Positions 1 through 12,895 of a stretch of DNA of 64,000 bases are shown one piece after another. Within the stretch, counting starts at the first letter, position 1. Every line of letters begins with the position of its first letter. Location: contig CM000151.3 in assembly GCA_000004695.1 (NCBI GenBank), positions 5,216,001 through 5,280,000 on the forward strand. Direction: 5' to 3'. The DNA comes from Dictyostelium discoideum. Taxonomy: Eukaryota. Made by a program: the position numbers and the translations under genes. The notes under the pieces are model-generated. The model was not told where the DNA came from, did no database searches, and worked only from the letters and a program-made list of their open reading frames with translations.

Positions 1-1123
1 TGGATCATATGTGGAAATCACAAGATTTAGATTTACATATGACCATTTATCGTTGTATTGCAACTGGTATGGGTACTGGCTTAATTGAAGTGGTTCCAAA
101 TTCAGAAACTGCCGCTAGAATCCAAGCTGGTGCTGGTGGTGTATCTGGTGCTTTCAAACAAACACCCATTGCAAATTGGTTGAAAAATCATAATCAAACT
201 GAAAATAGTTATCAAAAAGCAGTTTCAAAATTCACATTATCTTGTGCTGGTTATTGTGTTGCAACTTATGTTTTGGGTATTGGTGATAGACATAATGATA
301 ATATTATGGTAGATATTCATGGACACCTTTTCCATATCGATTTTGGTCATTTCCTTGGTAATTTCAAAACATTTGCAGGATTTCAACGTGAAAAAGCTCC
401 ATTCGTTTTAACTCCTGATTTCGTTTATGTAATTGGTGGTAAAGATTCTCCAAATTTCGCTTTCTTTGTTGATATTTGTTGTAAAGCTTTCAATATAATT
501 AGAAGTAATGCTCATGTTTTTATAAATATGTTTGAATTGGTAAGTTTTATTATTATTATTATAATTATTTTAAAATTTTAAATATTAATATATATTTTCT
601 TTTTTTTTTTTTTTTTTATTATTATAATTAGATGTTATCCACAGGTATTCCAGAACTTAGAAGTGAAAATGATATTGTTTATTTACGTGATAAATTTAGA
701 TTAGATCTTACAGATGCAGAAGCTTCAGAATACTTTAAAAAACTTATTCATGAATCAATAGGTACATTAACAACTACAATTAATTTTGCAATTCATATTA
801 TGGCACATCGTAAAAATTTAGTTTCTGGTAATTCAGCACCTAAAATTGGAAGTGCAAGTAGTTTAAATTTAAATAAAAATAAACCATCATCACAAAGTAA
901 ATTAGATTTAAGTAGATCAGATTTAAGTAGATCAGATTCAAGTAGATCAGATTCAAGTAGACTTGACTTAAGTAGATCAGACAAAAAAAATAATAAGGAT
1001 AATAAAGAAAAAGAAAAAGAAAAAGAAAAAGAAAAAGAAAAAGAAAATAATGATAATAACGACAAGGATAATAATAATAATAGTAATAATGACACAGAGA
1101 AAGAAAATAGTATAGATAAATAG
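1..1123 (+). CDS. Phosphatidylinositol 3-kinase (class I-like) catalytic domain C-terminus, 5'-partial. Exons 1..~540 and 632..1123, intron ~541..631.
   Basis: The translation carries the PI3/4-kinase catalytic and activation loop motifs GIGDRHNDNIMV and HIDFGHFLGNFK...REKAPFVLTPDF, closest to class I p110 rather than Vps34. A GTAAGT donor follows ...MFEL, and a T-rich intron ends in ttaattAG immediately before ATGTTATCC (MLSTGIPELRSE.., a conserved p110 helical tail). The frame is continuous into the ORF at 632..1123. The C-terminus is a low-complexity SRSD/KEKE tail. The gene starts upstream of the window. Confidence 0.8.
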
Positions 1124-1184
1124 TAAAATAAACTACAAATTGTAGTTTTTAATAAAATTGTAAATAATTATTATAATTAAACTC

Positions 1185-1217
<33 letters not shown>

Positions 1218-1219
1218 AT

Positions 1220-1948
1220 TTAATTACATTTTTGACAAGATGGTGTATTTGTTTGTTTATTTATTGAATATGGTGAATTTGGTTTAATAATTTCACTACA
1301 TTTAAAACATTTAAAACAATTGGCATGATAATTTTTACCCATCGCAAGAAGGGTTTGTCCGAGCGTCATTGAATTACATCCATTACACTTATCAACTTTT
1401 TCAAAACAATCCTCACAACAGTAATTACTTAATTTTGATGTCATTTTCTCTCTATAATACTTTTCATTATTTATTCCTTTTTTACAAATTGTACACTTTA
1501 AACAACCAATATGATATCTTTCAAGATCAATAGTCAATATATCTAAAAAAAAAAAAAAAAAAGAATTAGTAATTAATTAATTATAAAAAAAAAAAAAATA
1601 ATTATTTTTTATTCCATACTATAATTAATTATAAAAAAAAAAAAAAAAAAAATAAAAAAAAAAAAAAAAGTACTAACCTTCATTTTGTCTAAAATATTTA
1701 TAACATAAAGAACAAAATCCTAAAGATTCTCTCAATGGTTTTGATTGATCATTTCTAATTACTTCACACTTTGCACAATAAAAATCACCAGTTTCTTTAT
1801 CTGTAAAGTAAGGATCGGAAATAGGAGTAGAACATAATTTACAAACAAAACATTGCTCATGAAATGTATCAGAGTTATGGTTTGTTATTATTTTATTTGT
1901 TATTTCTAATTGACATTTTTTACATTTTAAAATATTTTGACCACTCAT
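1220..1948 (-). CDS. LIM-domain protein (three Cys-rich LIM-type zinc fingers). Exons 1678..1948 and 1220..1542, intron 1543..1677.
   Basis: The minus-strand ORF 1673..1948 starts [13 protein letters not shown]...[10 protein letters not shown]...DFYCAKC, a LIM-type spacing of C-x2-C...H-x2-C-x2-C...C-x2-C. It ends ...RQNE at an AAG|GTTAGT donor. The acceptor ttttttAG|AT restores the frame into the ORF at 1220..1537 (..[45 protein letters not shown]). The track's M at 1537 is a TTG. Confidence 0.7.
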
Positions 1949-2486
1949 TTTATATTACTATTATTATTCTTATTTTATTATTAATTAAAAATAGAAAACT
2001 AAAAATAAAAATTTAAAAATAATTAAATTTGAAAATAAAAAAAAAAAAAATAAAAAAAAAATTGGACTTGAATTGTTTATTTGAAAAACCTGGGTGTGAA
2101 AATAAGTTTTTTTTGTCCAACCCACACTTTGGAAATAATAAGATTTTTTTTTTCAATTTAGGTGAAAATTCAAATTCCAACCATTTGGCCTTCATCATTT
2201 TTTTTTTTTTTTATTTTTTTTTTTATTTTTTTTTAAATTTCAAAAAAGATAAAAATAGAAATTAAAAAAAAAAAAATAAAAAAAACTAAAATAATGAAAA
2301 TAATAATAATCATGTTTTTTTTTATATACCATTTAAGATTGTAAACACTTAAATTATTAATTGAATTTTTAAAAATATACTGTCAATGGTTAAAAAAAAA
2401 AAAAAAAAGAAAAAGAAAAATTTCCTATTGGTTCATTTTAAATTTCTAATGGTTTTTTCCCAAAAATTTTATTTTAGAAAATTGTT

Positions 2487-5400
2487 TTATTTTGATTTTA
2501 TTTTTTGTTGGTGTTGTTGTTGTTGTTTTGTTGTATTCTTTTTAATAACTTTAATTTGATAAACTATATCATTATAAACTGTATCTCTATCTTTATTAAT
2601 AAAACTTGTGAAATTAAAAATTTTATAATCACTTGTTTTAATTTGAAGAGCATTGAAAACCAAAGCTACTTTAATTTTCTTAACTTCAATAATATTTAAA
2701 AGTGGTACAGATATTTTACCACCAATTGAAATACCAACTTGTTTTAAGAGATTATGAAAACCTAAATATCTACTACTAATTACCAATAGACCTAATTGAC
2801 CATTATAGGAGCAAAGATATTTTTCAATGATGAACTCATTCTCTGGAATAACATTTATACTTTCAATAGAAATATCAACACCATCTATTACCAAAGGTTT
2901 TTCAACTACACCTTTAATCTTATTTACAAATGTACGTGATTCTTTATCAAATTCCATTCTAGTTGATAAAATTGATATAATTTCATCAAGTGAATTTGAA
3001 ATTAATTGATTTAAAGTTTGTTTAGTTGTTGTTGTTGCCGATGTTGATGTTGATAATGAACCAGATGATGATGACGATGATGATGAATTCATACTATTTG
3101 ATAGTTTCTTTTGATTTTGATTATATTGATCAATTAAAGAAGTTGTATCCATTTCAGATAATGATAATAATAAACGAAGTGGTAATAATTTCTCTTCAAG
3201 TATTGGTGTTGCAACACCACCACCACCTCTATGAAATAATACCATTAATTCTCTAAGTACTGAATTTACAATTAAAATTTGATCAACATTTAAAATTACA
3301 TGATCAGAATGAAATGGTAATTTCAATTCATTTGGTCTTTGAATTAATAGATATTGTAATTCTTGAATAATTTGAATCCATAATTTTCTTAAAAATGGTT
3401 TAAATGAAGTTTCTCTAAACTTTCCATATAATTCTTCAATCTTTGTTGTTAAAAATTCTTTAATTTGTGATAATATCATTTTTTCAAATCTTCTTAAATT
3501 AATAACTGATCCATTTAATCCATTATTATTATTATTATTATTATTACCATTACTATTATTATTATTATTATTATTATTACCAATTGAATCAATTAATGAA
3601 CCAGAAGAATTTGATTGAGAATTTTGAATTGGTGTAAAAACATATGGAGGAGTTGTAGTAGAATCAATTGTTGGTGAAGTTACAGAATGATTACTATTAA
3701 TTGAAGATGACAAACCATTAGTGGTGGTTGTAGTGGTCGTTGAATCAATATTTGTACCAACACTACCAACAATTGAATTTGGTGATAAAACTATTAAATT
3801 TTCTTGAATATTTTGTTGTTCAGTAAAATGACTATTTTTTAAAACCAAAGGTTCAGAGAATAAAACTGATTGAAAACAATAGAATAAATAATTTTTAATT
3901 CTTTTACAAAGGAAATCCTCCAAATCATCAATTGATTGATTTAAATATTTATGAGTATCGTCAAGACAAAGTTTAAAACTATCTTCAATACATTGTTTTG
4001 TATATTTATCTAGATTTTGAATTTCACCTTGTTTCTTTCTTTCCTTTAGATTATTTAAAAGATTTGAATGAATTGTTGAGGCTAAAGAATCCAATTTAGC
4101 TTTTGATTGTTCGATATTATTATACATTATACATGGTTCAATGTTTAGAGTGAAAATGGGTGGTTTACCATCGATTGATTCAACTTCAGTTGCTTCTATC
4201 CAATCATAAAATTCTTGTTTTAATAAATTTACATAGTGAATGATTTGTGAGCTAATAACTTCCAATAGTTGAACAAAAGAGAAAGAATCTGGTAACCACA
4301 TTAATGAATCGAAATCTTTTAATGATTGATCACATTGTTGAAAGAATTTTTTAAAACTAAAACTATGACCTAGTGTAATGGAAGCCAAAGTTTTCTTATC
4401 ATCACTTTTAATCGATTCAATACAACAATTTGAAAGTGTTTCATTGATTTCTTTTAATAACTTGTAAACATAAGTTACAAACAATTGTTTCAATGGCATT
4501 GGTTTAAATCTTTCCATTGCAATTGATTTTGTGAAATTATGATAATCCAATACCCTTTTAACCAATGGTAAAATGTTTGGATGGTATGGTGCCCAACTAC
4601 AAAAATCCTCCATAATCGTTAGAATACAACCACCCCAAACATCAATCAAATCACAAGTTATCTTTACATCAATTGGGAAGGCAGATTCATACTTGAGAGT
4701 GTTATTAACTTCCTCTTGAATGATTTCGATCAATTCTATTAACATTAGAGAGATCTCAGATACTTGTTTGATTTTACTTGATAATTCCATTTGAAGGAAA
4801 CCCATTGCAATTATATTCTCTTCAAATTTCTTTTTTTGTTCAATTATAATGGTTGATGATAAAAGATAATTGAAATAGATTGATTGATGTTGTGGTTCAC
4901 CAGTGATATTTAAATTTAATAAATTACAAATGGAACCTAACGATTGAACTAACCCTTTCAAAGCATTTCTTGGTTTATTATTTGGGAATGATTCATAGAA
5001 TCTACCAATGGTGAATTTAATTTGTGAAAATAGTAATACAACACTTGAATGAATTGATTTTAATTCACCCTTTATGAAAATGAATGGTGTTTCATTAATA
5101 ATCTCCCAAATTCCTTCTAAAAGTTCTTGTAATTCCATTATATAATTTTTACTTTTATTTGATAATGCTGTAGTTGAAGATGCTAACGATGGTTTCATCT
5201 CTAATTTATATCTATCTGCCATTATACTTAATTGAACTACCATTGTCGTTGATTTTGATAATCCATATCTAAGTGAATATTGATTCAATAACATTCTAAA
5301 ATAACTTAATATCCAAACATCCTCTTCTTTGTCATCATTTGTTGTATCATCGAATGGGTTTATAAATTTTGGTGGAACTGATGAAGGTGTATATGATGTT

Positions 5401-5753
5401 GGTGATTTAATATTTGATTTCAATAATGATAATTTATAATTCTCTTGTTCTTCTAATATAAAATTAAATAATGTTGAATATAATGATATATGTAAAACTG
5501 AACATCTATGTTGTAAATTAATTGATGAATTTGGATTATTAATTGGTAAATTATCAACATTATTACCACCACCACCACCACCACCACTATTATATGATTT
5601 TAATATAATTTGACGTTGATCCAATTGTAATAAATATTGATTATACTCTTGAAATTGATATTGATATTCAATTGATAAATTAATTTTACCAATTTCTAAA
5701 TTATTATTTATAACACTTTTAATTGAATACCAATCTTCTTTTATAATTTCATT

Positions 5754-5788
<35 letters not shown>

Positions 5789-8700
5789 TATCATTATTAT
5801 TATTTATTATTATTCTATCTTCTAATTCATCTTTAACATTAATTTCAACAATACCAATACACTCATCATTATTCATTAATAATAATTCTAATTTTGATCT
5901 TGGTTTTTTAATTTTAATTAAAAATGATTCGGACCATAATGGATTATTATCATTTGAAATTGTTGTTGTTTTTACGAACTTTTCACTACCACTTAAACTA
6001 TTACCACCATTTGATATAATTATATAACAATTATTATTATTATTTGTTGGTGATGGTAATTTCAAATCAATTGCTTGTAATACATTTATAAAAATACAAC
6101 CAATGAAATCACCTTCTTTAAAAATTATTGATCTCATTACACGTGATATCTCTTTTAATTCTAATGATTTCCATTTTTCATAATTACTTTTAAATAATAT
6201 ACTATTATCATCATCATTATCATCATCATCATTATTAATCTCATTATCACCATTAATATTCTCTTCACCATTTTCTACACTTTCACTATTACCATTACTA
6301 CCTTCAATTAAATTATTTTGTTGTCTTAAATTTTGTTGTCTAATACCTAAATTTGAACTTTCACCACCATTTGAAAAAGAAAATTCATTATAATATGGAT
6401 TTGAATCTAATAATAATGATTCTGCTCTACTCTTTAATTCCACTAAAATACCTTCATCTTTATATGTAGAATTGATTAATAGATTCTTTGTAATTGCTCT
6501 TGCTTCAACATCATCAATCATTAATTTTCTTTGTAATCTATCTAAAAATTGTTGTGGAGATTCCATATCAACCGGTTTCATATATGGTAATGAATTACTA
6601 AAACAACATTGAACTAATTCAAATAATAAATTCTGAAAAAAAAAAAAAAAAAAAAAAAAAAACAAATAAATAAAAATATGTTAACATATATTTAAATAAT
6701 AATAATAATAATTTATAATTAATAATTAATAATTAATTATACTTACTTTATCATTTTTATCATAATATTTAAACTTATCTATAAATGATTTAAAAGGTGG
6801 ACATTTTAAAACTTGAATTGTTGTATTTGATTTTGTAATATTATAAGTATGTAATGATTTTAAAGGATTTAAAACAACACCACGTTCAATACTCTTTGGT
6901 AAAAATAGATAATATTCTTCAATTGTTATTCTCTTTCCAATATATGTTGATAATTCTCTAAAGATTTCTGATATTTTAGAATCAATATCAATTGATAATT
7001 TAATACATCTTGATTTATCTTCTACCAATTCAAATTGTAAATTTATATCTTTAACAATTGAAAATTTTTTAAAATATAATAATTCACTAATATTATTATT
7101 ATTAGTACTATTACTAAAATATGATGATACAGTTTTATCTTCTTCTAAAATATAAAATTTTTTTTCACCAATTATTGAATTATTATTTAATGGTGTTGTT
7201 ATATTATTATTATTATTATTACTACTACTATTATTTGATTTTGAATTCACTGGTGTATTAATTGGTGAAGTATTAATACGATGTTTTAAAGTTATTGATT
7301 GAGTATGAATTAATGATAATTGATCTTTATTTTTATTTAATGCTTTAACTAATGATTCAAAAGATTGTAATGATGGTTGTTTATCTAAAGTTGGTATTTT
7401 ATTTAATTTCTTACTATTTCTTTTTGATTTTTTACTTGGTTTACTCTTTACTAATATATACTGTGATTGATCAACTATTGATGATGATGTTGTGGTTGTT
7501 GATAATCTACTCCTTATTTTATCTAATAATTCACAAACTAATGAATCTTTAGAAATTGTTAATGTTATTACACTTGAACTACCAAATTTTTCAAAATCTT
7601 CAATTTCAATTGAAATTTTAATATTACTATTATTTGAAGATGTTGAGGAGGAGGTTAAATTATTTTCAGGTGAAATTAAAGTTGGTGTACCCCTATTTGG
7701 TGAATTACTACTACCACCACCACCACTACTACCACTACCACTAATTGATAATGATCTTTTCTTACTATTTGATGTTGTTTTTGATAATGGTGATAATGCT
7801 CTATTTGTACCTGATCCACTTCCCATTAAACTATTACTACTATTACTTTTATTACCAGCTATACGATTACCAATATGACTATTTAAAGCATTACCATTAC
7901 TATTATTATTATTATTTATATTTACCAACTCATCATCATCTTGATCGAAATTATCAGTTATTTGAGATGATATTTCATCAGAATCATATGTACTATTTCC
8001 ATCGTCTTCTTCTTCATCCTCGTTATCATCATCATCTTCTTCATCGTCATCGTCATCATCTAAATTTTCACCACCACCATTTGCAATCCATTGACTATTT
8101 AAAACTTTAAATGCTTTTGAACGATGAATGAATGATGCGAATAAATATTTCTTTTTACTAGTTCTAATTTGAATTGCATTTGGTAAATAAAATGTACCAA
8201 TCTTTTTCTTTATACTTTTAATCTCTTTAAATGAAATCAATGTTTTCTTATTCTTTGCTAATGTTGATGTGCTACGAAATCCAATAAATCCTTGTGTAAT
8301 ATACATTGTACCTGTATGTGACATACTTGCCATTTTCTTTGCTTGTTTTGTACAATAACATTCTGATATAACTAAAATTCAAAAAAAAATAAAAATAAAA
8401 AAAAATAAAAAAATATTAATATTTTATTATTATTATTATTATTATTATATTATTTTTTTTTTTTTTTTTTTACCTTGTTCTTGATGTGGTAATGATGGAA
8501 ACCAACGAAACATTAATGGTAATGATTTCATTGTTGTACTATCATTTTCAGGTACTAATTCAAAATTTAAAGTTAATGTTGAATTTGGTATGATTTCACC
8601 TTTTTTATTCTTTAAATTTATGACTTTATCTAAATAAATTGGTGGTGGTGATGTTGCTCCATTACGATTGGTGGTGGTGGTGTTACTATTATTACTATTA

Positions 8701-9348
8701 CTACTACTACTAATTGTTGATTGATCATTCATTAAATTTCTAATCTCTAAAGTTATTGGTGCTAATGGTAATGTTGCAAAACAAAATGATTCACCACTTT
8801 TTAACATTTCCCATGTCTTAACTTTTAATTCCATTTCACCAGCTGGATAAACATCTTCATTAACTTCAAATATAAATGTCTCTTTTTGAAATATTACATT
8901 TTCACCACCATTAACATATTTTGTTTTATATTTACTATCATGTAATTTTAATTTTACTAAAACCCATTGTTTCTTTTTTTTTAAATAACTTCCATTAGGT
9001 ACTTTTATTTATTATTTATTTGTTTAATATTATTTATTTTTTATTATTTATTATTTATTATTTATTATTTATTATTTATTATTGTATAATAGAAAAAAAA
9101 AAAAAAAGAAAAAGGTTTTTATTAATTTGTGTTTAATTAATAGAAAAAAAAATTATAAAAATAAAATTAAAAAAAATAAAAAAAAATAAATATTAAATTT
9201 GGTAAAAACAAAAAAAATAAAAAAAATAAAAAAAATCTAAAATTGATATTTTATGACTTTCATACTCCTTAAATAAAATATCTAAAATTTTAAACAAAAA
9301 AAAAAAAAAAAAAAGAACCTTACCTGATACTAAAAGTCTCTCTTTCAT
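2487..9348 (-). CDS. Large (~2,100 aa) protein with two C2 domains and a long helical C-terminal region; function unassigned. Proposed exons 9324..9348, 8474..9001, 6747..8362 and 2487..6632.
   Basis: Three minus-strand ORFs (8445..8834, 6726..8333, 2487..6665) join in frame through canonical introns. CAAG|GTAAAAAA...tatatcAG|AATG joins the first two, and GATAAA|GTAAGT...ttttttcAG|AATTTA joins the last two. The 8.4-9.0 kb ORF stays open upstream to an aaaAG|TACC acceptor and encodes a C2-like fold (..QWVLVKLKLHDSKYKTKYVNGGENVIFQKETFIFEV..GEMELKVKTWE). A 25-nt first exon ATGAAAGAGAGACTTTTAGTATCAG|GTAAGG at ~9324..9348 fits the phase. A second C2 domain lies in the large exon (FIGCIFINVLQAIDLKLP...NPLWSESFLIKIKKP...IGIVEINV). 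The assignment of exon 1 is the weakest part. Confidence 0.6.
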
Positions 9349-9425
9349 TTTCTATACAAAATGAAAAATAAGAATTAAAAAAAAATGTATGAATTTTTTT
9401 TTTTAAAAAAACTTTGATTTCTTTT

Positions 9426-9457
<32 letters not shown>

Positions 9458-9978
9458 TAAATAATAGGAAAAAATAAAATAAAATAAAACAAAATAAAAA
9501 AAAAAATAAAGTAAAAAAAAAAAAAAAAAAGAAAAAAATATTTATTATTTTACAAGGAAGTTATGAGAAAAAAACAGAGTGACAGGGTTGCACTACCATT
9601 AATTTTTTTTTTTTTTTTATGATGATTAGAAATCGATATCTTCTTTTGTATGTTGTTATTATTATAATTCAAAAAGGTTCTAAAAATAAAAAAATAAAAA
9701 AAAAATAAAAAAAAAAAATAAAATTTTTTTATTTTTTTATTTTGAAATTATTTGAAAAAAATTACCCACTTGGGTTAAACAATTGAAAAAAAATAATTAA
9801 TTTATTATAAAAATAGAAAAAAAAAAAAAAAATTTTATCTTTAGATATTAATAGATATCTAATATATTTTATTTATTATTATTTTTATACATTAAAAATT
9901 TTTTTTTTCTTTTTTTTTTTATTATAATTTTTTTTAATTAAAAAAAAAAAAAAAAAAAAACAAATTATCTATATTTGA

Positions 9979-12895
<2,917 letters not shown>

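Follow-up and report, generated by a model that had tools for sequence, protein, structure and literature searches.

The locus raises two questions: whether three open reading frames and a 25-nt first exon, which had been joined in a preliminary description, form one gene, and to which protein family the product belongs. Positions below are those of the window, i.e. the whole stretch of 64,000 nucleotides that was analysed. The three reading frames and the first exon constitute one minus-strand gene, DDB_G0275287 of Dictyostelium discoideum AX4 (chromosome 2), with four exons, the ATG at 9348, and the stop codon at 2487..2489. The spliced product was identical end to end with the NCBI/UniProt protein DDB_G0275287 (2107 aa), and this exact reproduction of the annotated protein bears out the earlier proposal of one gene with four exons and a product of about 2,100 aa. 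All three introns were of the GT..AG type with consistent phases, and the A+T content was 92-97% in the introns versus 75% in the exons. Note that the gene model is not new: it is already annotated in public databases, and the earlier hand splicing, correct to within 9 nt, has the value of a check only. DDB_G0275287 was mentioned in no paper in our literature search. The features of the gene and its product are listed in Table 1.

Table 1. Features of DDB_G0275287 and its product (slash, splice site).
Feature	Position in the window	Residues (aa)	Strand	Remarks
Exon 1	9324..9348		-	25 nt; MKERLLVS and first base of Val9, phase 1
Intron 1	9002..9323		-	322 nt, 91.6% A+T, gt..ag
Exon 2	8474..9001		-	degenerate N-terminal C2 and start of GRAM 1
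Intron 2	8372..8473		-	102 nt, 97% A+T; acceptor ttttag at 8372/8371
Exon 3	6747..8371		-	GRAM 1, acidic/low-complexity linker, two ubiquitin-like-looking segments
Intron 3	6633..6746		-	114 nt, 93.9% A+T, phase 0; AAA/gtaagt ... tttttcag/AAT
Exon 4	2487..6632		-	including stop; helical segment, C2 number 2, MUN, GRAM 2
N-terminal C2 (number 1)		1 to about 160	-	exon 2; low-complexity insert at about aa 97-130
GRAM 1	8088..8516	171-279	-	position includes intron 2; directly after first C2
Acidic/low-complexity linker		283-432	-	exon 3
Ubiquitin-like-looking segment	7440..7625	434-495	-
Ubiquitin-like-looking segment	6804..7046	627-707	-
Conserved helical segment		727-899	-	exon 4
C2 number 2	5646..6113	900-1055	-	Pfam C2 at aa 906-995
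MUN domain	3087..5489	about 1108-1908	-	PDB profile matches, AF2 model, Foldseek
Disordered insert in MUN	3510..3830	1661-1767	-	107 residues, Ser/Thr/Asn-rich, between MHD1 and MHD2
GRAM 2	2553..2867	1982-2086	-	C-terminal, after MUN

The first exon at 9324..9348 was upheld by the annotated protein and by its conservation in D. purpureum, in which 23 of the 25 nt were identical (both changes synonymous), with gtaag and an intron of 130 nt downstream. In D. discoideum, its ATG is immediately preceded by aaa and the exon (9348..9324) ends at the donor CAG/gtaagg as ATGAAAGAGAGACTTTTAGTATCAG/gtaagg; the N-terminus MKE[RK]LL[VI]SV was common to five dictyostelid orthologues. The boundaries of introns 1 and 3 were also as described earlier (GT..AG, fitting phases), and D. 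purpureum has an intron at the position of intron 3 and in the same phase. The repeat that had been described in intron 1 as (tttattatt)n with a period of about 9 bp was found with TRF to be an array of period 7, (TTATTTA) x11.7 at 9005..9083 (85% matches, score 116), of which "tttattatt" is a substring. A weak 9-10-bp A/T tract (68-72% matches) was also observed in intron 1 at 9159..9242.

Exons 1, 2, and 4 of the earlier model stood, and the start of exon 3 had to be moved, with the acceptor of intron 2 lying 9 nt upstream of the one proposed. Intron 2 had been placed at 8363..8473 by use of the second of two in-frame AGs, which gave a protein of 2,104 instead of 2107 aa; among the candidate exon 3 starts, only 8371 gave the annotated protein exactly. 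The Val-Ile-Ser encoded at the annotated acceptor was present in all six orthologues with sequence at this position (as [VIM][IM]S), and in D. purpureum, which lacks intron 2, it is encoded contiguously. A 2104-aa isoform (acceptor 8363/8362) might nevertheless be real or co-exist if the tandem acceptors ttttag and tatcag, 9 nt apart, were used alternatively: both AGs are in frame and follow a T-rich tract, and tandem acceptors spaced by a multiple of 3 nt are sometimes alternatively used in eukaryotes. We consider this unlikely, given that the annotated protein uses 8372/8371, that this upstream AG is the first past the A/T tract, that the conserved Val-Ile-Ser belongs to the first strand region of GRAM 1, and that D. 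purpureum has no intron there. That the region contains three or more separate genes, with the 25-nt exon a chance ATG plus GT, accords with the list of open reading frames (8445..8834, 6726..8333, and 2487..6665, all three with start codons of their own) and is scarcely conceivable, since the gaps between the frames are 92-97% A+T with canonical GT..AG ends and fitting phases, GRAM 1 (Pfam, aa 177-279) spans intron 2, aa 9-729 are encoded in D. purpureum by one exon that is unbroken at the D. discoideum intron 2 site, exon 1 is conserved in nucleotides and peptide, the "start" of 2487..6665 is a TTG ahead of a poly-Phe run, which results from translation of the polypyrimidine tract of intron 3, and the orthologues in six other dictyostelid species extend contiguously over every part and are collinear over the full length.

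The single gene very likely encodes a divergent member of the Munc13/UNC-13 (MUN, CATCHR-fold) superfamily with the order C2–GRAM–linker–ubiquitin-like (probable)–helical segment–C2–MUN–GRAM. The preliminary description had proposed two C2 domains, and Pfam C2 (PF00168) was found twice in the protein and also in the orthologues. The assignment of C2 number 2 is clear, with a match at aa 906-995 and 48.8 bits for the protein as a whole. The first C2 ends about 740 residues before this domain, which begins near aa 900; the two domains were retained, the spacing of "about 700 residues" was not. The N-terminal C2 scored 22.2-22.4 bits (cut-off 22) and was matched in four of five orthologues (best E 2.5e-6). 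Its AF2 model had eight strands at low confidence (mean pLDDT 56), and the top 50 Foldseek matches to the model in the PDB were all C2 domains, with weak E-values (best 3e-3). The domain aligned with the canonical N-terminal C2 domains of the amoebozoan homologues and occupies the same position. A profile search of the PDB with this region gave no match, and hhalign against one sequence was negative. On this weak but convergent evidence, we regard the N-terminal C2, an eight-stranded beta-sandwich, as real.

The Ca2+ ligands were inspected by alignment (MAFFT) with the C2 domains of Soliformovum, Protostelium, and Cavostelium; the usual aspartates were gone from both C2 domains, a result that depends on the alignment. 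In loop 1, D..G.SDPY was replaced by KKKKQW (C2 number 1) and PTNNNNNCY (C2 number 2), and in loop 3, WDKD..DDF was replaced by WEML..ESF and LMN..NDEC, respectively; in the alignment with canonical C2 domains, D..G.SDPY and WD.D....DD were replaced in all dictyostelids. Because both domains lack the Ca2+-coordinating Asp residues and loop 1 of the first reads KKKK, membrane binding is probably Ca2+-independent, and electrostatic or phosphoinositide-driven.

With Pfam GRAM (PF02893), a score of 80.7 bits was obtained for both copies together (best stretch, aa 177-279) and one of 25.6 bits for GRAM 2 alone (Pfam cut-off 23.6). Both GRAM and both C2 copies were also detected with Pfam in the full-length orthologues. 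The two GRAM domains had been missed in the earlier description. With two GRAM and two C2 domains, the protein might be chiefly a membrane-contact-site or lipid-sensing C2-plus-GRAM protein of the GRAMD1/Aster or VAD1 type, in which the MUN-like rod would be a spacer; in GRAMD1/Aster, GRAM domains serve as sensors of plasma-membrane lipids. This is improbable in our view, since the Pfam scans of DDB_G0275287 detected neither a VASt/StART-like lipid-transfer domain nor a transmembrane anchor, and conservation within the family peaks in the MUN region, in blocks with many invariant columns. A ubiquitin-like (talin-F0/RA-type) module, which was likewise overlooked, is probable in DDB_G0275287. 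For aa 627-707, FERM_f0 matched the segment in four of seven orthologues (best E 5.8e-6) and scored 19-21 bits in full-length scans, below the cut-off of 26.9. The ubiquitin family matched three of the seven orthologues, the D. discoideum sequence of this segment itself had no ubiquitin-superfamily match, and its profile matched ubiquitin variants in the PDB weakly (E 0.16).

The preference for a Munc13-type protein rests on the region downstream of C2 number 2. The "about 1,000 residues of helical sequence" described there proved to be helical and shorter, about 870 aa (1095-1960), in part disordered (for up to about 110 aa in one stretch), and followed by GRAM. When a profile of seven orthologues was searched against the PDB, only Munc13-1 MUN structures were matched, in four collinear stretches (3swh, E 2.3e-9; 4y21 and 6a30, E 6e-7) that included the MHD2 blocks PCILMNN and FHaGGxG...LSL...T..LI. 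The Munc13-1 HMM alignments do not reach the segment of the Asn/Phe pocket (N1128/F1131), which in Munc13-1 is needed for syntaxin opening. The AF2 model of the region was all-helical (24 helices, pLDDT 80-93), with an insert of low complexity at aa 1661-1767 (pLDDT 24-31), and together with Foldseek it indicated an elongated all-alpha CATCHR-like fold. The first four Foldseek matches in the PDB were all Munc13-1 (7t7c, 2e-11; 5ue8, 5e-9 and 1e-7; 3swh, 7e-4). The global TM-scores against Munc13-1 were low (0.3, rmsd 12-14 A), as one would expect of a flexible rod interrupted by 107 disordered residues, though this is no proof; only the C-terminal MUN module superposed well (3swh, TM 0.76 normalised to the target). 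Sequence identity to Munc13-1 was 13-15%. Pfam MUN (PF06292) did not match the D. discoideum protein itself and matched one of the seven dictyostelid orthologues (E 1.4e-8). By homology of sequence and of predicted fold, we identify the region as a MUN domain of the Munc13 type, though a divergent one. The earlier guess of a Munc13/MHD-like domain thus fits the PDB profile and Foldseek results, as well as the amoebozoan homologues that pass PF06292. The identity of the helical region as DOCK-DHR, offered as an alternative, is unsupported, with no such Pfam match.

MUN and the subunits of tethering complexes share the CATCHR fold, and the region could in principle belong to another CATCHR tether (exocyst, M-Sec, COG, or Dsl1-like) or be a generic helical repeat; M-Sec (5b86), Exo70, and Sec10 do appear in the Foldseek list (E 0.03-0.5), and Pfam MUN misses the D. 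discoideum sequence. However, the sequence profiles match Munc13-1 only, in four collinear blocks with the MHD2 signature, Munc13-1 outranks the other CATCHR proteins by 6-9 orders of magnitude in Foldseek E-value, homologues in other Amoebozoa pass the Pfam MUN and PATROL1-TPR thresholds, and a C2 lies directly N-terminal of the region (Pfam C2 at aa 906-995, helices from about aa 1108), as in Munc13, Munc13-4, and BAIAP3. We therefore give this alternative very little weight.

As a Munc13-type protein, DDB_G0275287 was compared with the characterised families. With Munc13-1/UNC-13 (C1–C2B–MUN–C2C core; 5UE8, 7T7C, 4Y21, 3SWH), it shares the MHD1/MHD2 blocks, the elongated helical fold, a C2 just before MUN, and a lipid-binding module after it, and by extension it may share membrane bridging and the chaperoning of SNARE assembly. 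The diacylglycerol/phorbol-ester-binding C1 of Munc13-1/2/3 is absent, with no match in Pfam scans of the whole protein and of pieces. Where Munc13-1/2/3, Munc13-4, and BAIAP3 carry a C-terminal C2 (C2C/C2B), DDB_G0275287 has GRAM; no C2 was found after MUN, and GRAM (aa 1982-2086) was the sole domain there (Pfam, custom HMM map). Munc13-1 has neither the N-terminal C2–GRAM pair nor the probable ubiquitin-like module; in DDB_G0275287, unlike Munc13-1, the C2 domains lack the Ca2+-binding Asp and the 107-residue disordered insert splits MHD1 from MHD2. Munc13-4 (UNC13D) and BAIAP3 (C2A–MUN–C2B) share the simple core of C2 then MUN with no C1, but have no extra N-terminal modules; they were compared by domain order and were not among the solved-structure matches. 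Munc13-4 and BAIAP3 are non-neuronal priming/tethering factors of lysosome-related organelles and dense-core vesicles, and by this analogy the most plausible role in the amoeba would be in exocytosis of a non-synaptic, endolysosomal, or secretory-lysosome kind. CAPS/UNC-31 (C2–PH–MUN-like DAMH) shares a MUN-type domain, a C2, and a lipid-binding domain of the PH superfamily, but its PH lies between C2 and MUN, whereas the PH-like GRAMs of DDB_G0275287 lie in the far N-terminal region and after MUN; no PH was found between C2 number 2 (end at about aa 1055) and MUN (start at about aa 1108), and Pfam gave no PH or CAPS-specific match in the protein. In fungal Munc13 proteins of the Ync13/Git1 type, a C2 splits MUN (MHD1–C2–MHD2; PMC6249806). 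These belong to the same superfamily, and chytrid proteins of this type were matched by the dictyostelid MUN profile, but the insert inside MUN of DDB_G0275287 (aa 1661-1767) is disordered and of low complexity with no C2, and the C2 precedes MUN.

By analogy, DDB_G0275287 is probably a vesicle-tethering and SNARE-priming factor. As in Munc13-1, the rod-like MUN would span the gap between two membranes, anchored at both ends by lipid-binding modules: C2 number 2 and the N-terminal C2–GRAM pair would bind on one side, and the C-terminal GRAM, with its PH-like fold, would bind on the other in place of the vesicle-binding C2C of Munc13. MUN might then aid SNARE complex assembly for an exocytic or endolysosomal fusion step. 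Like the Ca2+ independence proposed above, the bridging of membranes, the priming of SNAREs, and the cellular pathway are inferences.

An exhaustive HMM search revealed homologues in Protostelium, Soliformovum, and Cavostelium, and those found with the MUN profile at E 2e-22 to 7e-14 passed Pfam MUN or PATROL1-TPR. The homologues of Protostelium nocturnum and Soliformovum irregulare have the order of the Dictyostelium protein, C2–GRAM–C2–MUN–GRAM (Pfam MUN E 1e-17 and 6e-11), and BLASTP between the D. discoideum and Soliformovum proteins was collinear over GRAM 1, C2 number 2, MUN, and MHD2 plus GRAM 2. In the Cavostelium apophysatum homologue, C2–GRAM–C2 is followed by a TPR_PATROL1 match in place of MUN, and a C-terminal GRAM was not detected. 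MUN followed by GRAM was also found in a malawimonad (with C2 before MUN) and a heterolobosean. The uncharacterised C2–MUN–GRAM proteins of protists (P. nocturnum, S. irregulare, Gefionella okellyi, and Acrasis kona) are the true family of DDB_G0275287; no experimental study of them was found in the literature search. The non-dictyostelid members differ from the dictyostelid form in two ways: the Ca2+-binding motifs of both their C2 domains have stayed canonical, and they lack the long Asn/Ser/Thr-rich inserts.

The domain assignment is a modest addition, a protist C2–MUN–GRAM variant of the Munc13 family. It would turn a "hypothetical C2 domain-containing protein" of a tractable model amoeba into a Munc13-family protein whose MUN escapes Pfam and whose accessory domains are unlike those of every characterised subfamily (GRAM for the C-terminal C2, and C2 domains predicted to be Ca2+-blind). 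More tentatively, and as a possibility that we would not call likely, DDB_G0275287 could be a tractable representative of an old C2–MUN–GRAM lineage of protists (Amoebozoa, malawimonad, heterolobosean), which may have no counterpart among the characterised forms of animals, fungi, and plants; GRAM would stand in for C2C, the talin-F0/RA-like fold could link SNARE priming to a small GTPase, and the dictyostelid form would be Ca2+-independent. Because no D. discoideum-like paralogue was present among the 72 profile matches, the cell perhaps also has no MUN-type priming factor besides this protein, which may act, for example, in post-lysosome or contractile-vacuole exocytosis. If the domain assignment holds, Dictyostelium would be a simple system to sort the ancestral parts of Munc13 (membrane bridging, SNARE chaperoning) from the animal-specific ones (regulation by Ca2+, DAG, and calmodulin), and amoeboid exocytosis would have a named candidate priming factor. 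Among the protist homologues, that of A. kona is annotated as "calcium-dependent secretion activator".

Positions 9700 to 6500 were read on the minus strand, and the exons of the preliminary description, which had been joined by hand into a single gene of about 2,100 aa, were spliced by script, giving 6315 nt with 2104 codons and no internal stop. The four-exon splice was right in its open frame and in the GT..AG ends of all three introns, and 9 nt off at the acceptor of intron 2. This intron ends with two in-frame acceptors 9 nt apart (ttttag/TTATATCAG/AATG), and with the one lying upstream (exon 3, 8371..6747) the product has 2107 aa, the sole version exactly equal to the database protein (hypothetical protein DDB_G0275287 of D. 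discoideum AX4; 100% identity over 100% of the length in a database search), which bears out the single gene. The Val-Ile-Ser added by the upstream acceptor is kept as [VIM][IM]S in all six orthologues covering the site; in D. purpureum a single unbroken exon codes residues 9-729, and Val-Ile-Ser is therefore plain coding sequence there. A+T makes up about 75-80% of the window DNA, and its coding sequence contains poly-Asn and poly-Gln tracts; introns 1, 2 and 3 have 91.6%, 97.1% and 93.9% A+T, and the exons 75.3%. Judged by annotation identity and cross-species conservation, the junctions appear sound. The gene was annotated already, as an uncharacterised one, and our model is a re-derivation from raw sequence. 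A reading as three separate genes was rejected, since GRAM 1 crosses intron 2 and thereby links two "separate" ORFs; the ORF-track "start" of 2487..6665 (TTG, MFFFFFFFFFQ) is the polypyrimidine tract of intron 3 in translation.

Features in and around DDB_G0275287 (window positions; residues of the 2107-aa protein)
Feature	Position (strand)	Residues	Remarks
Exons 1 to 4	9348..9324, 9001..8474, 8371..6747, 6632..2487 (-)
Intron 1 boundaries	(-)		CAG/gtaagg...aaaag/TAC
Intron 2 donor	(-)		CAAG/gtaaaa...
Intron 3 boundaries	(-)		AAA/gtaagt...tttttcag/AAT
Intron 1 array	9005..9083		(TTATTTA) x11.7, period 7
Intron 1 tract	9159..9242		weak, A/T-rich, 9-10-bp period, 68-72% matches
5' intergenic homopolymers, before ATG	9418..9540, 9603..9618		T41, A-rich (~70 nt), T16
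C2 number 1		7-90	Pfam, N-terminal 184 aa alone
GRAM 1		177-279	best Pfam GRAM stretch
Linker insert after GRAM 1	7629..8078 (-)	283-432	acidic, low-complexity
Beta-grasp-looking segments		434-495, 627-707
Helical segment		727-899	conserved, ahead of C2 number 2
C2 number 2		906-995	best Pfam C2 stretch
Insert in MUN	3510..3830 (-)	1661-1767
Rcd1/CNOT9 ORF	9979..10902 (-)		next gene upstream, same strand
LIM ORFs	1220..1537 (-), 1673..1948 (-)		downstream, adjacent

The proposed 25-nt first exon has a counterpart in D. purpureum (ATGAAAGAAAGACTTTTAGTTTCAG/gtaag) that is identical at 23 of 25 positions, both differences being synonymous third positions, and is followed by a 130-nt intron. The peptide MKE[RK]LL[VI]SV opens five orthologues. 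When exon 1 is left out, the earliest in-frame ATG in exon 2 is Met64, and the C2 fold would lose its N-terminal half. As far as the comparative data show, exon 1 is real. The repeat of intron 1, described as having a period of about 9 bp, has a period of 7, the quoted "tttattatt" being merely a substring of the array; repeats of the (TTATTTA)n kind are not unusual for Dictyostelium introns, and there is no sign of a function. Long homopolymer runs, such as those in the 5' intergenic region, are a typical Dictyostelium promoter feature.

The long helical region, left unnamed in the preliminary description with a guess at a "Munc13/MHD-like" domain, is a MUN domain, as judged from profile comparison, AlphaFold2 with Foldseek, and the Pfam matches of homologues. 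It went unnamed there and in Pfam because Pfam gives just noise for the D. discoideum region alone (DUF6022, CFAP61_dimer); the MUN model (PF06292) misses this sequence, hence the bare UniRef name "C2 domain-containing protein", and matched one of seven dictyostelid orthologues (E 1.4e-8). When aa 1095-1960 were aligned with six dictyostelid orthologues (alignment A2) and the profile was compared with all PDB sequences, the MUN domain of rat Munc13-1 was the sole significant match (3swh, E 2.3e-9; 4y21 and 6a30, E 6e-7); one further listed match (6jbx, E 0.47) was not significant. The Munc13-1 matches form four collinear stretches, two of which score very weakly alone, with "...YRNNFPASSPE..." opposite "RYYESFPNNKPR", "PCILMNN" opposite "EPCIMxNN" and, in the MHD2 block, "FHAGGVGL...LQSLRYALSLYTQATDLLI" opposite "FHRGGSGxATP...PLRLLLSLSEMDTTSLI". 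AlphaFold2 on A2 gave an all-helical model (24 helices, pLDDT 80-93) in which segment residues 567-673 (the MUN insert of the table) are disordered. In a Foldseek search of PDB with this model, Munc13-1 took ranks 1-4 (7t7c, E 2e-11; 5ue8 chain B, E 5e-9, and chain A, E 1e-7; 3swh, E 7e-4, target TM 0.76), and other CATCHR proteins (M-Sec, Exo70, Sec10) came below it (E 0.03-0.5). The guess was accordingly correct; the DOCK-DHR domain named as an alternative is unsupported by any scan. The quoted motif DVWGGCILTIMEDFCSWAPYHPNILPLVKRVLDYHNF (aa 1390-1427) lies within the MUN domain. The MUN insert and the linker after GRAM 1 are Ser/Thr/Asn-rich or acidic low-complexity sequence, predicted to be disordered, highly variable in length among dictyostelids and absent in other amoebozoan homologues.

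With Pfam, the full protein matched GRAM in two stretches with 80.7 bits in total and C2, likewise in two stretches, with 48.8 bits in total; the N-terminal 184 aa alone matched C2 with 22.2 bits (cut-off 22, E 1.7e-4), and the C-terminal 344 aa alone matched GRAM with 25.6 bits (cut-off 23.6). The two C2 domains had been recognised before, and both GRAM domains overlooked. Extra tests were run on the N-terminal C2, at which the preliminary description had held itself open to refutation. Pfam C2 was matched by four of five orthologue N-termini (best E 2.5e-6). The N-terminal 172-aa profile had no match among PDB sequences at E<=10, and hhalign against a single Soliformovum N-terminus yielded nothing meaningful (probability 0.2), the alignment being too shallow (Neff 1.7). 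The AlphaFold2 model built from an alignment of five sequences is of low confidence (mean pLDDT 56) and shows eight beta-strands, with strands 6 and 7 separated by a long insert; all of its top 50 Foldseek matches in PDB were C2 domains, though weak (best E 3e-3), including those of myoferlin, otoferlin, dysferlin (C2A), PLC-delta and Munc13-1 (C2B). Other amoebozoan homologues have a canonical, high-scoring C2 at the same position, ahead of the first GRAM, and the dictyostelid N-terminus aligns with these strand by strand. We take this N-terminus to be a degenerate C2 domain.

Since phmmer of C2 number 2 against PDB gave no match at E<=0.01, amoebozoan homologues were used to check the Ca2+ ligands. 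In the C2 domains of the Soliformovum, Protostelium and Cavostelium homologues, loop 1 has the canonical motif D..G.SDPY and loop 3 the canonical motif WD.D....DDF. In the alignment, dictyostelid C2 number 1 has KKKKQW with a 4-residue deletion in loop 1 and WEML..ESF in loop 3, and C2 number 2 has PTNNNNNCY and LMN..NDEC. Because the canonical motifs are replaced, Ca2+ binding has probably been lost in both dictyostelid domains, a reading that depends on the alignment.

A ubiquitin-like module in the middle region, between the acidic linker and C2 number 2, is probable, not established. Talin FERM_f0 was matched by four of seven orthologue segments (Pfam, best E 5.8e-6), the ubiquitin family by three of seven and PI3K_rbd by one; the D. 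discoideum segment itself had no Pfam match, FERM_f0 reached 19-21 bits in full-length scans (under the Pfam cut-off of 26.9), and the PDB profile match to ubiquitin variants had an E of 0.16.

An exhaustive HMMER search with the MUN profile over 1.84 billion representatives gave 72 proteins at E<=1e-3. Outside the dictyostelids, the best matches came from the Amoebozoa Protostelium nocturnum, Soliformovum irregulare and Cavostelium apophysatum, from chytrid fungi and from Amoebidium. Pfam found C2, GRAM, C2 and MUN (PF06292, E 1e-17) in the Protostelium homologue, C2 (7-107), GRAM (145-254), C2, MUN (E 6e-11) and PATROL1-TPR in that of Soliformovum, and MUN/PATROL1 followed by a C-terminal GRAM in two fragments; by BLASTP the Dictyostelium and Soliformovum proteins are collinear over GRAM 1, C2 number 2, MUN, and MHD2 plus GRAM 2. 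Custom HMMs (GRAM, C2, MUN profile) mapped on all matches separated two architectures. The fungal type, C2–MHD1–C2–MHD2, was found in the chytrids Entophlyctis and Nowakowskiella, consistent with fungal Munc13 proteins as described in PMC6249806. The protist type, with GRAM after MUN, was found in Amoebozoa, Gefionella okellyi, Acrasis kona and several metagenomic proteins. The protein of Gefionella, a malawimonad (P0030), has C2 before MUN; that of Acrasis, a heterolobosean (P0035, KAL0487826.1), is annotated "calcium-dependent secretion activator", yet its domain order differs from that of CAPS. None of the 72 matches had the poly-Asn signature that marks a D. discoideum protein, and therefore no close D. 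discoideum paralogue was detected among them; a very distant one would escape the profile.

Munc13-1 bridges the vesicle and the plasma membrane through its MUN rod, which bears C1–C2B at one end and C2C at the opposite one; the rod also opens syntaxin and acts as a chaperone in SNARE assembly. This role agrees with the titles of entries 5UE8 and 7T7C and with the introduction of PMC6249806. In the Dictyostelium protein, too, lipid-binding modules flank the MUN rod, C2 number 2 together with the N-terminal C2–GRAM on one side and GRAM 2 on the other. By analogy, it would be expected to link two membranes and to help SNARE complexes form, free of Ca2+ or DAG control. The analysis shows only the domain content and homology; that the protein bridges membranes and acts in priming, which two membranes it joins and what the ubiquitin-like module does are inferred.

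The searchable literature contained no mention of DDB_G0275287 and described no Dictyostelium or amoebozoan Munc13-like protein and no MUN-plus-GRAM architecture. Pei et al. (2009) reportedly surveyed MUN-domain proteins and architectures, and C2–MUN–GRAM may be catalogued already in that survey. As the gene model is public, the gain lies in assigning the MUN domain with confidence and in recognising that the Munc13 family includes a protist C2–MUN–GRAM variant; this is unsurprising in kind and of moderate interest to specialists in membrane traffic.

Three orthologue models are seemingly faulty: Cavenderia fasciculata DFA_10826 (P0007) is extended at the N-terminus by ~500 unrelated aa, is missing the first half of C2 number 1 and has a truncated GRAM 2; that of Acytostelium (P0006) begins within GRAM 1; and Heterostelium PPL_05407 (P0004) lacks ~85 MUN residues, its profile match splitting at 1237/1238. 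D. purpureum DICPUDRAFT_97228 (locus L001, 3001..9260) partly has the intron positions of D. discoideum: the two species share exon 1 and intron 1 as well as the phase-0 intron that follows DKND[KR], D. discoideum intron 2 is missing, and two additional short introns (85 and 84 nt) lie in the C-terminal GRAM region. In the ORF upstream of DDB_G0275287, a match to the C-terminal half of Rcd1/CNOT9 (Pfam Rcd1, E 1.7e-48, profile positions 117-260) precedes poly-Gln, poly-His and poly-Asn tails of great length; another exon further upstream must encode the N-terminal half. Each of the two downstream ORFs has one LIM domain (Pfam E 7e-13 and 7e-10), and a single LIM-domain gene probably includes both as exons.
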